Shown here: positions 8,301 through 38,300 of the stretch, piece by piece
Layout of the letters: each line of letters opens with the position of its first letter
Numbering within the stretch: position 1 is the stretch's first letter
Assembly (NCBI RefSeq): GCF_013167455.1
Contig: NZ_CP038328.1
Source of the DNA: Escherichia coli O157:H7
GTDB lineage: Bacteria; Pseudomonadota; Gammaproteobacteria; Enterobacterales; Enterobacteriaceae
Strand: one strand, 5' to 3'
DNA length: 64,000 nt
Position numbers: made by a program

Positions 8301-11300
8301 CCATCAACCAGGCGAGTGCGGGAGCGACGTTAACTGTCACCTACCAGGGCTGTGCTGATGCCGGTTTCTGTTATCCGCCAGAAACCAAAACCGTTCCGTT
8401 AAGCGAAGTGGTCGCCAACAACGCAGCGTCACAGCCTGTGTCTGTTCCGCAGCAAGAGCAGCCCACCGCGCAATTGCCCTTTTCCGCGCTCTGGGCGTTG
8501 TTGATCGGTATTGGTATCGCCTTTACGCCATGCGTGCTGCCAATGTACCCACTGATTTCTGGCATCGTGCTGGGTGGTAAACAGCGGCTCTCCACTGCCA
8601 GAGCATTGTTGCTGACCTTTATTTATGTGCAGGGGATGGCACTGACTTACACGGCGCTGGGTCTGGTAGTTGCCGCCGCAGGGTTACAGTTCCAGGCGGC
8701 GCTACAGCACCCATACGTGCTCATTGGCCTCACCATCGTCTTTACCTTGCTGGCGATGTCAATGTTTGGCTTGCTTACTCTACAACTCCCCTCCTCGCTG
8801 CAAACGCGCCTCACGCTGATGAGCAATCGCCAACAGGGCGGCTCACCCGGCGGAGTGTTTATTATGGGGACGATTGCCGGACTGATCTGTTCACCATGCA
8901 CCACCGCACCGCTTAGCGCGATTCTGCTGTATATCGCCCAAAGCGGGAACATGTGGCTGGGCGGCGGCACGCTTTATCTCTATGCGTTGGGCATGGGCCT
9001 GCCGCTGATGCTAATTACCGTCTTTGGTAACCGCTTGCTGCCGAAAAGCGGCCCGTGGATGGAACAAGTCAAAACCGCGTTTGGTTTTGTGATCCTCGCA
9101 CTGCCGGTCTTCCTGCTGGAGCGAGTGATTGGTGATGTATGGGGATTACGCTTGTGGTCGGCGCTGGGTGTCGCATTCTTTGGCTGGGCCTTTATCACCA
9201 GCCTACAGGCCAAACGCGGCTGGATGCGCGTGGTGCAAATAATCCTGCTTGCAGCGGCATTGGTTAGCGTGCGCCCACTTCAGGATTGGGCATTTGGTGC
9301 GACGCATACCGCGCAAACTCAGACGCATCTCAACTTTACACAAATCAAAACGGTAGATGAGTTAAATCAGGCGCTCGTTGAAGCCAAAGGCAAACCGGTG
9401 ATGTTAGATCTTTATGCCGACTGGTGCGTCGCCTGTAAAGAGTTTGAGAAATACACCTTCAGCGACCCGCAGGTGCAAAAAGCGTTAGCAGACACGGTAT
9501 TACTTCAGGCCAACGTCACTGCCAACGACGCACAAGATGTGGCGCTGTTAAAGCATCTTAATGTCCTTGGCCTACCGACAATTCTCTTTTTTGACGGACA
9601 AGGCCAGGAGCATCCACAAGCACGCGTCACGGGCTTTATGGATGCTGAAACCTTCAGCGCACATTTGCGCGATCGCCAACCGTGAACGACACTTGCAGTG
9701 GGAAAGACGGAGGAAAATAGCGTGCAACGTGAAGATGTACTGGGAGAAGCCCTGAAATTATTAGAATTACAAGGGATTGCCAACACCACGCTGGAGATGG
9801 TTGCTGAACGTGTGGATTATCCACTGGACGAGCTACGCCGCTTCTGGCCAGACAAAGAGGCAATCCTCTACGATGCGCTGCGTTATCTTAGCCAACAGAT
9901 AGATGTCTGGCGTCGTCAGCTGATGCTGGACGAAACGCAAACCGCCGAACAAAAGCTGCTGGCACGTTATCAGGCGTTATCGGAGTGCGTTAAAAACAAC
10001 CGCTATCCGGGCTGTCTGTTTATCGCTGCCTGTACGTTTTATCCCGATCCTGGCCACCCTATTCATCAACTGGCCGATCAGCAAAAAAGCGCGGCCTACG
10101 ATTTCACCCACGAACTGTTAACCACGCTGGAAGTTGACGATCCGGCGATGGTAGCAAAGCAGATGGAACTGGTGCTGGAAGGCTGTTTAAGCCGAATGCT
10201 GGTGAATCGTAGCCAGGCGGATGTCGACACCGCACATCGGCTGGCGGAAGATATCCTGCGCTTCGCCCGCTGCCGCCAGGGTGGTGCACTGACCTGACAG
10301 AAACACAGAAAAGAAGCGATTTGCCGCAATCTTAAGCAGTTGAATCGCTTTTACTGAAATTAGGTTGACGAGATGTGCAGATTACGGTTTAATGCGCCCC
10401 GTTGCCCGGATAGCTCAGTCGGTAGAGCAGGGGATTGAAAATCCCCGTGTCCTTGGTTCAATTCCGAGTCCGGGCACCAAATTCATATAAACGGACCTCC
10501 ACGGAGGTCCGTTTTTCGTTTCAGGACGCCACGATTTAAGTGTTCTGCCTCCAAATCAATTCTACCGAACTCAACCCGATTCTCCCCACATCACCAGCAA
10601 TTTGCGGGCATATCCCAATTCGGGAAAATTTGTTCCTGAGCTATAGCACTAACTAACGTGAAATGTCGTGCGGCCCCGTGATGCTGTTGAACGTCAAATG
10701 ACGTCATCAGGAGCGTAACGCATCCATAAAGCGCAACATCGGTCTGAACGCCGACTGATGAGATTTTCTGAATGAGAACAAAGAGAAATGTATCAGTCCG
10801 CTTGCTCATGCAAAGACTAACAATCCATTAAAATAGTAAGCGCTCCGGACAATTTTCCATGGATTATTTTCTGAACATTTTTCTTTGGCAAAGATGATGA
10901 ATTTTGATGGTAAGGAATATTACTTCTGGTTCTCAGTAAAATCCTTTCGTAATACCATGTAATCAAGAAGTTTATGGCTGGTAAAAATAACGTCTTGCAT
11001 TCACCAATAATATGTAAATAAACCCATCTATAGATGGTAAAAATAGGTTGTGGCAATTATCATTGCATCATTCCCTTTTCGAATGAGTTTCTATTATGCA
11101 ACAACCTGTAGTTCGCGTTGGCGAATGGCTTGTTACTCCGTCCATAAACCAAATTAGCCGCAATGGGCGTCAACTTACCCTTGAGCCGAGATTAATCGAC
11201 CTTCTGGTTTTCTTTGCTCAACACAGTGGCGAAGTACTTAGCAGGGATGAACTTATCGATAATGTCTGGAAGAGAAGTATTGTCACCAATCACGTTGTGA

Positions 11301-35300: not shown

Positions 35301-38300
35301 TCCGGTTTCTGAATAAAGATCTCTCGCAAATACCAGTATGGCAACGTAGCGCTACGCCCATTCTCACCCTGCCATGCCTGACACCAGACGTCTTTCGCGT
35401 TGCCGCGCAACACAGCATGATGCCCGCAGAAACTGAGTCAGAAAAGGAACGAACACGCGCATTATTATTCACGGTGCTATCCCGTTTTCTCGACAGTAAA
35501 AAATTCCTTTCATTAATGATGTATATGTTACGTAATTGTGTAAGTGACAGCGTTTATCAAATTATTGAAAGCGATATTCACAAAGACTGGAATCTTAGTA
35601 TGGTAGCCAGTTGTTTATGTCTTAGCCCAAGTCTGTTAAAGAAAAAGCTGAAAAGCGAAAACACCAGTTATAGCCAAATAATCACCACCTGCCGCATGCG
35701 TTATGCCGTAAATGAATTAATGATGGACGGTAAAAATATCTCTCAGGTATCACAGTCCTGCGGCTACAACAGTACGTCGTACTTTATTTCTGTCTTTAAA
35801 GACTTCTACGGTATGACACCGCTGCATTATGTTAGTCAGCACAGAGAACGCACTGTCGCCTGATTTTTAACCTTAACGAAGAGCTATATTAATAACGGCA
35901 TCAGCGATAACCCGGTCGATAATAATTCAACTATCGAATGCAGGCGTATGATATGACGTAATTTATTGTCACGAAGCTCGCCTTCGCAGGAGTTTAATTA
36001 TGTCTTCGGATGCTGATGCTCACAAAGTGGGCTTAATCCCCGTCACCCTGATGGTGTCGGGGAATATTATGGGGTCAGGTGTTTTTCTGTTACCTGCAAA
36101 CCTGGCCTCCACCGGCGGGATTGCCATTTATGGATGGTTGGTGACGATTATCGGTGCGCTGGGGCTCTCGATGGTATACGCCAAAATGTCGTTCCTCGAC
36201 CCAAGTCCTGGTGGTTCTTACGCTTACGCCCGCCGCTGCTTTGGCCCGTTTCTCGGTTATCAAACCAACGTCCTCTACTGGCTGGCCTGCTGGATCGGCA
36301 ATATCGCCATGGTGGTCATTGGCGTAGGATATTTAAGTTACTTCTTCCCGATTCTGAAAGATCCATTGGTATTAACCATCACCTGCGTCGTGGTGCTGTG
36401 GATCTTCGTCCTGCTGAACATTGTCGGTCCGAAAATGATCACCCGTGTGCAGGCCGTTGCCACCGTGCTGGCGCTGATCCCCATCGTCGGGATTGCCGTA
36501 TTTGGCTGGTTCTGGTTTCGTGGTGAAACCTATATGGCGGCATGGAACGTCAGCGGCCTGGGCACCTTCGGTGCAATTCAAAGTACCCTTAACGTTACGC
36601 TGTGGTCGTTCATCGGTGTGGAAAGTGCCTCCGTTGCCGCAGGTGTGGTGAAAAACCCGAAACGCAACGTCCCTATAGCCACCATTGGTGGGGTATTGAT
36701 TGCCGCCGTTTGCTATGTGCTCTCCACCACCGCGATTATGGGGATGATCCCTAATGCCGCACTGCGCGTTTCTGCCTCGCCATTCGGTGATGCCGCACGG
36801 ATGGCGTTGGGTGACACCGCCGGGGCCATCGTTTCCTTCTGCGCAGCTGCGGGTTGCTTAGGTTCACTGGGCGGCTGGACATTGCTGGCGGGTCAAACGG
36901 CGAAAGCGGCTGCCGATGACGGACTGTTCCCACCGATTTTTGCCCGTGTAAATAAAGCGGGTACGCCAGTGGCGGGGCTGATTATCGTCGGTATTTTGAT
37001 GACCATCTTCCAGCTCAGCAGCATTTCACCAAACGCGACCAAAGAATTCGGTCTGGTTTCTTCCGTGTCGGTCATCTTTACACTGGTGCCATATCTTTAC
37101 ACCTGTGCGGCGTTACTGCTGCTCGGACACGGTCACTTTGGTAAAGCACGCCCGGCATATCTGGCGGTTACTACCATTGCCTTCCTCTACTGCATCTGGG
37201 CCGTGGTGGGGTCCGGGGCGAAAGAGGTTATGTGGTCATTTGTCACCCTGATGGTCATCACCGCCATGTATGCGCTGAATTACAACCGGCTGCATAAAAA
37301 CCCGTATCCCTTAGATGCACCAATAAGCAAAGATTAATTCCCCTTAATCCAGCAAAGATAAAAGCCAACCTTAAGAACTTAAGGTTGGCTTAATTTTGCT
37401 TTGCGAGCATATGCGCACTTTGTTCGATGGAAACACCGTGATGTTGAAGCGCCTACTAAAAAGACCCTCTTTGAATTTACTCGCCTGGCTATTGTTGGCC
37501 GCTTTTTATATCTCTATCTGCCTGAATATTGCCTTTTTTAAACAGGTGTTGCAGGCGCTGCCGCTGGACTCGCTGCATAACGTACTGGTTTTCTTGTCGA
37601 TGCCGGTCGTAGCCTTCAGCGTGATTAATATTGTCCTGACACTAAGCTCTTTCTTATGGCTTAATCGACCGCTGGCCTGCCTGTTTATTCTGGTTGGCGC
37701 GGCTGCACAATATTTCATAATGACTTACGGCATCGTCATCGACCGCTCGATGATTGCCAATATTATTGATACCACTCCGGCAGAAAGCTATGCGCTGATG
37801 ACACCGCAAATGTTATTAACGCTGGGATTCAGCGGCGTGCTTGCTGCGCTGATTGCCTGCTGGATTAAAATCAAACCTGCCACCTCGCGTCTGCGCAGTG
37901 TTCTTTTCCGTGGAGCCAATATTCTGGTTTCTGTACTGCTGATTTTGCTGGTCGCCGCACTATTTTATAAAGACTACGCCTCGTTGTTCCGCAACAACAA
38001 AGAGCTGGTGAAGTCCTTAAGCCCCTCTAACAGCATTGTTGCCAGCTGGTCATGGTACTCCCATCAGCGACTGGCAAATCTGCCGCTGGTGCGAATTGGT
38101 GAAGACGCGCACCGCAACCCATTAATGCAGAACGAAAAACGTAAAAATTTGACCATCCTGATTGTCGGCGAAACCTCGCGGGCGGAGAACTTCTCCCTCA
38201 ACGGCTACCCGCGTGAAACTAACCCGCGGTTGGCGAAAGATAACGTGGTCTATTTCCCTAATACCGCATCTTGCGGCACGGCAACGGCAGTTTCAGTACC

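Follow-up and report, generated by a model that had tools for sequence, protein, structure and literature searches.

The lysine (cad) and arginine (adi) decarboxylase systems of Escherichia coli O157:H7 lie close together in a chromosomal region of uneven base composition, 64,000 nucleotides of which (contig NZ_CP038328.1 of NCBI RefSeq assembly GCF_013167455.1, termed here the window) were analysed. The region is probably a piece of core chromosome with a patchy composition, in which the individual patches have different histories. Short AT-rich islands cover promoters and the genes for the pathway activators, cadC and adiY, and not those for the decarboxylases and antiporters; according to the literature, H-NS binds such islands and keeps both systems off at neutral pH, until CadC and AdiY, on low pH and inducing signals, overcome the silencing. 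For adiY, the cad promoter spacer and the 3' end of cadC, a high AT content would then be a maintained regulatory property, not a leftover of recent transfer, while that of cadC as a whole appears to have arisen inside the Escherichia lineage. The five-gene module cadCBA-dtpC-lysU has evidently moved from an ancestral accA/yaeR-tilS site, and in Escherichia lies beside the tRNA gene pheU, and ghoST is likely to be a lineage-restricted toxin-antitoxin insert. By this account the phosphonate (phn) operon would be an old syntenic resident of around 60% GC whatever its host, and no target of H-NS, with the segment beyond yjdP a truly strain-variable one.

A first-pass annotation of the window, made from the sequence alone, had read its composition as the product of layered horizontal acquisition. 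Acquisition or relocation is supported for the whole cad module, for ghoST and for the block after yjdP, but not for adiY, the cad promoter or phn, and the structural genes look native; the argument that DNA is acquired because it is AT-rich breaks down at adiY and at the cad promoter, and for cadC it is unproven.

Annotation was taken from RefSeq record NZ_CP066753.1 (5036987-5100986), which is identical to the window except for two single-nucleotide polymorphisms, and in which all of the genes previously named are present where they had been placed. A megablast with 11096-33000 likewise matched O157:H7 chromosomes at 100%. The gene order is groLS, yjeH, fxsA, aspA, dcuA, cutA, dsbD, yjdC, tRNA-Phe (pheU) and an integrase pseudogene fragment, followed by cadC, cadB, cadA, dtpC, a lysyl-tRNA synthetase gene, ghoT, ghoS, yjdJ and yjdI; then dcuSR, dcuB, fumB, yjdF, melBA, melR, adiA, adiY, adiC, eptA-basRS, proP, rdcB-crfC, yjdM and yjdN; and finally phnC-P, yjdP, a hybrid sensor kinase gene and those for a sugar ABC transporter. 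The principal features of the two decarboxylase systems are as follows.

11096..12634, + strand: cadC, membrane-bound ToxR-like activator of cadBA (Pfam Trans_reg_C and CadC_C1)
12635..12999, + strand: cadC-cadB spacer, containing the cadBA promoter, 34.8% GC
13000-14334, + strand: cadB, lysine/cadaverine antiporter (AA_permease_2), of ordinary composition
14414-16561, + strand: cadA, lysine decarboxylase, of ordinary composition
16620..19831, + strand: dtpC and lysU (annotated lysS), which move with cadCBA as one module in many genera
32313..32510, + strand: melR-adiA spacer with the adiA promoter, 34.3% GC
32511..34778, + strand: adiA, arginine decarboxylase, 52.8% GC, ordinary
35102-35863: adiY, AraC-family activator (HTH_AraC/HTH_18), inside AT island 4 (below)
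36000..37337, + strand: adiC, arginine/agmatine antiporter, 54.4% GC, ordinary

The cad-linked lysyl-tRNA synthetase gene (18314-19831) is labelled lysS by the annotation; its position after dtpC is that of the second, cad-linked copy, lysU. The two systems had been described as paralogous decarboxylase/antiporter pairs about 18 kb apart, and this holds: the starts of cadA and adiA are separated by 18.1 kb, CadA and AdiA are 36% identical (E 2e-163), and CadB and AdiC are 38% identical (E 4e-109), each pair having common Pfam families. Both decarboxylases are of the PLP-dependent Orn/Lys/Arg family, matching OKR_DC_1_N, OKR_DC_1 and OKR_DC_1_C (major-domain E values 1e-200 and 7e-192), and both predicted antiporters match AA_permease_2, of the amino-acid permease superfamily. 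Each cluster also has its own activator gene, the domains being Trans_reg_C and CadC_C1 in CadC and HTH_AraC/HTH_18 in AdiY, with the roles taken from published work (Krin 2010, PMC2984483).

Composition was compared with eight stretches of 50 kb from the same chromosome, in which backbone (187.6 kb, GC 0.513) was separated from prophage and island DNA. The backbone includes 139 genes at RefSeq coordinates (GC 0.515 ± 0.039; GC at third codon positions, GC3, 0.555 ± 0.072) and 71 spacers (GC 0.435 ± 0.064). Greedy calling of the longest open reading frames (ORFs) was rejected for this background as it chose antisense ORFs inside phn, and the annotated coordinates were used instead. A codon adaptation index (CAI) was built in-house from 14 highly expressed genes, such that its values are relative only. 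The borders of AT and GC islands came from a maximal-scoring-segment scan, with islands counted at 30 nats or more; binary Jensen-Shannon segmentation was dropped in its favour, having found only the phn boundary because single splits cannot see small islands. The islands are listed below.

10761-12990: AT island 1, 2.2 kb at 39.4% GC, comprising the spacer upstream of cadC, the whole of cadC and the cadC-cadB spacer; at 62 nats it scores above every island in the 187.6 kb of backbone
20011-20950: AT island 2, 37.4% GC, over ghoT, ghoS and yjdJ (segment scan)
23671-24330: AT island 3, 35% GC, the dcuR-dcuB spacer (segment scan)
34731-35970: AT island 4, 39.0% GC, the adiA-adiY spacer and adiY (segment scan)
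45891-46190: AT island 5, 25.3% GC, the crfC-yjdM spacer, which is the most AT-rich 300 bp of the window (segment scan)
47631-60260: GC island of 12.6 kb, over phn and beyond, at 190 nats three times the best backbone island score

The five AT islands, 0.3-2.2 kb in size and 25-39% GC against 51.3% in the backbone, all fall within 1-47 kb, a length for which the expected number at this threshold of 30 nats is about 1.5 (Poisson P 0.019, or 0.057 over all 64 kb). Likewise, 1-kb windows below 43% GC make up 11.8% of 1-47 kb and 3.1% of the backbone (Fisher P 0.0016, for overlapping windows). The patchy composition is therefore real, and moderately denser than usual. Two of the islands, in the dcuR-dcuB and crfC-yjdM spacers, are as strong as those named in the first-pass annotation and were missing from it. 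The dcuR-dcuB spacer itself (570 bp, 35.8% GC) is as AT-rich as the spacers that were named, as is the dtpC-lysU spacer at 18078-18313 (236 bp, 30.9% GC).

Among individual genes, cadC (GC 0.420, z -2.4, GC3 0.39) and adiY (GC 0.411, z -2.7) are AT-rich relative to the 139 backbone genes, as had been suggested for the regulators, and so is yjdJ (GC 0.414, z -2.6); ghoT (0.351) and ghoS (0.347) are lower than all of the backbone genes (z -4.3), while yjdI, previously included in the same AT-rich block, is ordinary at 0.476. The spacer 5' of cadC (GC 0.324) is lower than all 71 backbone spacers, and the cadC-cadB (0.348) and melR-adiA (0.343) spacers both fall at the 3rd percentile. By contrast, the adiA-adiY spacer, which had also been called AT-rich, is at the 11th percentile (0.359), and that between adiY and adiC at the 21st (0.382), both unremarkable for intergenic DNA. 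Contrary to the earlier description, the genes for the decarboxylases and antiporters are not in AT-rich blocks: cadB (0.496), cadA (0.477), adiA (0.528) and adiC (0.544) lie within about one standard deviation of the backbone mean (z -1.0 to +0.7), with CAI percentiles of 96 for cadA, 85 for cadB and 80 for adiA. The phn operon was correctly described as GC-rich, at 60.4% overall; phnC-P have GC3 of 0.71-0.84, and 12 of the 13 intact phn genes exceed every background gene in GC. Within the two systems, only the regulators and promoters are AT-rich.

That the AT-richness of adiY is old is suggested by four adi loci outside Escherichia, found through relatives of AdiY: Salmonella enterica and Citrobacter amalonaticus (NCBI assemblies), and two run assemblies with proteins to which NCBI gives names from [Enterobacter] lignolyticus and Yokenella. 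In Salmonella and C. amalonaticus the order is exactly melB-melA-melR-adiA-adiY-adiC-eptA-basR-basS-pmrR-proP. In all four loci adiY is 11-13 GC points under adiA and adiC, in hosts with a local GC of 50-56%; the values are 0.436 against 0.542 and 0.564 in Salmonella, and 0.444 against 0.555 and 0.577 in Citrobacter. Such an equal deficit across genera with the same gene order argues that it is not a recent layer, but a maintained property of the gene.

The cad promoter appears to have a similar history. A scan of a genome collection with CadC gave 49 loci, and composition was compared over 40 Enterobacterales loci. In all 40 species the cadC-cadB spacer is 30-43% GC, around 19 points under its flanks, and in most it is about 365 bp long; it is evidently conserved regulatory DNA. 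The last quarter of cadC, beside the cadBA promoter (window 12100-12634), is among the AT-richest parts of the gene in every genus checked, and the AT-rich regulatory zone therefore appears to extend into the coding sequence. A scan for promoter-like sites over 10480-16561 found eight, against 11.5 ± 3.6 in shuffled sequences, and hence nothing beyond composition. The CadC search also returned fragments 100% identical to E. coli cadC on tiny contigs of very low coverage in assemblies labelled Arthrobacter and Alkalicoccobacillus, and a 69%-identical fragment in a Myxococcus assembly, all of which look like contamination.

The remainder of cadC is different. Outside Escherichia its GC equals that of cadBA (mean difference about -0.01) and follows the host (r 0.82), whereas in E. 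coli, E. albertii and a cryptic clade it is 6-7 GC points under cadBA, and 11-13 points at third positions. The shift in Escherichia is found at all codon positions (GC1 0.506 against 0.52-0.60 elsewhere), while the first and second positions of cadA are unchanged. Replacement of the original gene by a foreign copy was considered and ruled out: Escherichia occupies the same position in CadC, CadB and CadA trees and the outgroup distance of CadC is only slightly raised (0.475 against 0.45-0.46), and therefore cadC was not swapped. The gene evidently drifted AT-ward in place, within the Escherichia lineage.

The phn operon and the accessory block that follows it have the opposite composition.

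47468..58282, + strand: phnCDEFGHIJKLMNOP, phosphonate uptake and C-P lyase, 14 genes in the order transporter phnCDE, regulator phnF, core phnGHIJKLM and then phnNOP, with phnO frameshifted, 60.4% GC
58757..64000: hybrid sensor kinase and sugar ABC transporter block, 56.8% GC, accessory

The nearest relatives of PhnI outside Escherichia are in Kluyvera (90-91% identity), Enterobacter, Lelliottia, Trabulsiella and Yokenella (88-89%), and K. aerogenes (86-87%). The gene order is proP-kdgT-yjdM-yjdN-phnC..P-yjdP-yjcS-ytcA-mdtN in Kluyvera intermedia and melBA-melR-proP-yjdM-yjdN-phnF..P-yjdP-hybrid kinase-ABC in K. aerogenes, both of which match the neighbourhood in the window. Nucleotide identity between E. 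coli and Kluyvera is 77-86% for phn, against 81% for proP, 87% for yjdM and 74% for yjdN. The GC content of phn is 0.589 in Kluyvera, 0.617 in K. aerogenes and 0.604 in E. coli, where the flanking GC3 is 0.62, 0.71 and 0.56, respectively; with phn nearly constant while the host flanks vary, the operon is therefore an outlier only in E. coli. Despite its place on composition-based lists of transferred genes, the comparative evidence says that phn would be a long resident, which has diverged together with its flanks.

Within E. coli, phn is the most diverged block: between the O157 window and strain GN03449 it is 92-97% identical, against 97-99% for most flanking genes, the differences being mostly synonymous, and 1023 records match it at only 90-95%. 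The entries for phn in the S2 Table of Higashi 2016 (PMC4720273) give dS values of 0.11-0.20, against roughly 0.05 for many other genes in that table. Together with the nearly equal absolute GC in three hosts, these observations lend some credit to the idea that phn owes its lasting high GC to frequent homologous recombination and GC-biased repair, or to alleles repeatedly brought in from GC-richer relatives, rather than its being the relic of a single old transfer. This nevertheless remains a tentative explanation, and concerns phn alone, as both E. coli alleles are mutually closest and nothing points to import from the genera sampled; a recent import from Kluyvera or K. aerogenes was ruled out on the same ground. 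The phn query matches a median of 22 places per genome, probably through repeated GC-rich elements in spacers such as phnD/phnE (60% GC) and phnK/phnL (62% GC). The frameshifted phnO (57087-57522, 436 bp) is intact in GN03449 (435 bp).

Prevalence was counted over 5426 complete E. coli genomes. Every block from 10-58 kb is found at 80% coverage or more in 86-99% of them, while the kinase and ABC transporter block is present in only 421 (8%), most strains carrying rpiB-als there. The yjdP-kinase-ABC order is the same in K. aerogenes, with amino acid identities of 76% for the kinase and 88% for the ABC ATPase. Of the layers in the window, only this block clearly varies between strains, and it is GC-rich, not AT-rich.

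The genes for which a change of place is best supported are those of the cad module. The order cadC-cadB-cadA-dtpC is kept across genera as one conserved unit, which in Klebsiella, Raoultella, Buttiauxella, Pseudescherichia, two Enterobacter-labelled genomes and Escherichia also has lysU at its end. The genes on either side of the unit change with the genus, save for one context common to Serratia, Hafnia, Edwardsiella, Shimwellia, Enterobacillus, Plesiomonas and one Citrobacter freundii, namely lpxB-rnhB-dnaE-accA-(ldcC)-yaeR-cadC-cadB-cadA-(dtpC)-tilS-rof...nlpE (NCBIfam and tblastn). In E. coli K-12 the order is lpxB-rnhB-dnaE-accA-ldcC-yaeR-tilS, and the interval between yaeR and tilS is empty; the ancestral cad site is therefore unoccupied in E. 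coli, and the position beside pheU derived. These Serratia-type flanks were used for the empty-site test, those in Klebsiella being genus-specific accessory genes. Judging from gene order, the cad module has moved, and the data fit transfer or internal relocation alike. At the shared site ldcC is present in Serratia and the one C. freundii, and absent in Hafnia, Edwardsiella, Shimwellia and Plesiomonas, a pattern that, with the ldcC retained in E. coli, hints at an origin of ldcC by tandem duplication of cadA at the ancestral cad site. The adjacency of ldcC and cad is not described in a paper on ldc gene environments (PMC4832331).

At the derived site, two features precede cadC.

10404..10479, + strand: tRNA-Phe (pheU; RefSeq annotation), a known island integration site
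10677..10836, + strand: relic of a P4-type integrase, the C-terminal ~62 residues in ~160 bp with a frameshift and a stop, annotated as a pseudogene

Residues 359-420 of the intact integrase of the pheV island align to the relic (tblastn). No second copy of the 3' end of tRNA-Phe (the last 18 or 25 nt, with up to three mismatches) was found within the window. The block from pheU to cadC is not strain-variable, being found at 80% coverage or more in 5169 genomes. Published pheU islands use yjdC/pheU and cadC as flanks, with insertion between pheU and cadC in other strains, and some E. coli matches begin 23 nt before the tRNA end, as for islands at that position. The relic probably marks a former island occupant, and not cad as island cargo. 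In Escherichia sp. E1V33 and E. whittamii, 2.2 kb separates yjdC from tRNA-Phe, against 106 bp in the window.

The lineage-restricted pair ghoST lies at AT island 2.

19950..20946, - strand: ghoT and ghoS (type V toxin-antitoxin) with yjdJ (RefSeq annotation, Pfam)

GhoS matches PF11080 (E 6e-41) and the adjacent GhoT matches PF10753 (Toxin_GhoT_OrtT, E 8e-26), such that a type V pair is predicted, the gene for a small membrane toxin being downstream of that for the GhoS endoribonuclease. A search of 5.8 billion proteins found 45 relatives of GhoS, all the named ones being from E. coli or Shigella. The ghoST block lies 3' of lysU in E. coli and the cryptic clade, and is present in 5401 of the E. 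coli genomes, in 4672 of them with coverage of at least 80%. The type strain of E. albertii instead has a 223-aa ORF and ligB after lysU, and over 2.8 kb neither ghoST nor yjdJI nor dcuS. Rearrangement has evidently taken place at this border, and ghoST is the one AT-rich block for which lineage-specific gain would be the simplest reading.

It is unlikely that the AT-rich blocks, taken together with phn, represent successive imports from donors of differing composition, with H-NS silencing the AT-rich ones as foreign. Such a history would fit the tRNA-Phe and integrase relic directly 5' of cadC, the derived site of the cad module, the restricted distribution of ghoST and the accessory block after phn; in addition, the codes in S2 Table of Higashi 2016 (PMC4720273), capital L/N for adiY and capital H/L for phn, are read from their letters as 'predicted transferred' by Lawrence-Ochman, Nakamura or HGT-DB. 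Against it, however, the AT-richness of adiY and its gene order are common to Salmonella and Citrobacter, trees group cadC with cadBA and its AT-richness developed in place, and the four decarboxylase and antiporter genes are native in composition. Furthermore, phn is syntenic with Kluyvera and as diverged as its flanks, cadC acts as chromosomal flank to the pheU islands of other strains, no attR-like repeat lies within the window, and all blocks from 10 to 58 kb are nearly universal in E. coli.

The repression of cadBA by H-NS and its activation by CadC were reportedly described by Shi in 1993. The silencing of AT-rich parts by H-NS, the other half of the original proposal, is borne out by published experiments, to which the present analysis adds nothing new; H-NS repression and binding at cadC, cadBA and adiY are already in the literature. 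In an hns mutant, expression increases 4.6-fold for cadC, 5.1-fold for adiY, 16.9-fold for adiA and 11.6-fold for adiC; H-NS prefers adiY, cadBA and cadC promoter fragments in vitro, and AdiY binds the adiA promoter (Krin 2010, PMC2984483). CadC is reported to replace H-NS on the AT-rich DNA of the cad promoter (Schlundt 2017, PMC5430869). In a three-strain ChAP-seq study adiY, adiC and dcuR were bound by H-NS and nine phn genes unbound, and the yjdA(crfC)-yjcZ transcription unit is among the H-NS-bound entries (Higashi 2016, PMC4720273, S2 Table). The sole mention of cad in Srinivasan 2015 is a cadC point mutation, and a literature search pairing ghoS with H-NS returned nothing relevant.

A second improbable explanation is neutral: AT-rich genes may be weakly expressed and weakly constrained and pulled down by AT-biased mutation, H-NS binding being a passive by-product without a selected role. 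In its favour, cadC and adiY have the lowest codon adaptation of the region (both at the 4th percentile), the shift in cadC affects all codon positions as it would under mutation pressure, backbone spacers average 43.5% GC in any case, and those on either side of adiY are ordinary. Yet other regulators are not similarly affected, ten in the backbone being 44-54% GC and melR, dcuR and basR in the window 49-53%. Nor would neutrality readily account for an adiY deficit that stays constant in hosts of differing GC, for a cad promoter spacer that keeps its length and AT content over 40 species, or for the 5- to 17-fold changes in expression on loss of H-NS (Krin 2010, PMC2984483).

More speculatively, and with low confidence, it may be proposed that once the cad module had left the arrangement accA-ldcC-yaeR-cadCBA-dtpC-tilS for pheU in the ancestor of Escherichia, cadC was driven around 11 GC points AT-ward at all codon positions through selection to extend the H-NS filament from the cad promoter over the activator gene and so tighten silencing at the new site, with ldcC, as a corollary, an in-place tandem duplicate of cadA. 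Were this true, the AT-richness of cadC would be an evolved regulatory device, and not a mark of foreign origin. That the patchwork is ordinary compositional noise is very improbable, for although the backbone also has AT islands, with six in 188 kb reaching 30 nats, and pao as a single GC-rich operon, neither the excess of AT islands and AT-rich 1-kb windows nor the score of the phn island is matched there.

Several points weigh against a core chromosome with patches of differing history. That the AT-richness is maintained by selection is deduced from its conservation, and a local bias of mutation or repair where H-NS is bound would give the same picture. The evidence for H-NS at cadC consists of gel shift and expression only, and occupancy in vivo of cadC, ghoST and the crfC-yjdM spacer is presumed. 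The background is a 188-kb backbone sample and not the whole genome, and the blocks were picked after viewing the profile, which makes their percentiles optimistic. The trees are neighbour-joining trees on p-distances, without bootstrap support, and the sampled cad loci do not include Salmonella, such that the timing of the AT shift in cadC is coarse. Finally, the account leaves the persistence of GC-richness in phn without explanation, GC-biased repair with recombination being a candidate.

Much of this is already known from the literature, including the genes, their control by H-NS and the odd composition of phn, and in that respect the discovery value is small. The cad genes, with their AT-rich promoter and cadC, and the mechanism are those of the E. 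coli cadBA system governed by H-NS and CadC (Krin 2010, PMC2984483; Schlundt 2017, PMC5430869), to which the present comparison adds the derived site and a cross-genus view, in which the promoter is AT-rich everywhere and cadC only in Escherichia. Similarly, the adiA-adiY-adiC locus has the order and H-NS-bound adiY and adiC described before (Krin 2010, PMC2984483; Higashi 2016, PMC4720273), the addition being that the AT-richness of adiY is conserved in Salmonella, Citrobacter and two further genera. As in xenogeneic silencing, H-NS binds and represses AT-rich DNA, and dedicated activators relieve the repression; unlike in that system, a foreign origin is not demonstrable for most of the AT-rich DNA here, which is in nearly all E. 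coli, with adiY and the cad promoter conserved in other genera. The arrangement at pheU, where an integrase gene of matching orientation comes after tRNA-Phe, resembles the pheU/pheV tRNA islands with P4-type integrases, as at pheV in the same genome, but here the integrase is a relic of ~160 bp, a flanking repeat is absent and the neighbouring cad genes do not vary between strains. The phn operon has the genes, order and high GC of the known 14-gene E. coli operon, which older lists (Lawrence & Ochman 1998, HGT-DB) flag, according to the code letters as read; synteny and flank-like divergence with Kluyvera and K. aerogenes argue instead for long residence.

The broader point is one of caution: as a guide to recent horizontal transfer, AT-richness serves poorly in this region. 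Among coding pieces of known function the most AT-rich, adiY and the 3' end of cadC, are, with the cad promoter, conserved features of old loci, while the one clear relocation, that of the whole cad module, involves structural genes of native composition. The ancestral cad site beside ldcC, the AT shift of cadC found only in Escherichia and the host-independent GC of phn are modest new details that may be useful in work on acid resistance and genome amelioration. Beyond adiC, eptA (91.4%) and basR (94.0%) are far less similar between O157 and GN03449 than the genes around them (~98-99%), a divergence (window 37441-39749) that looks like a recombination import.

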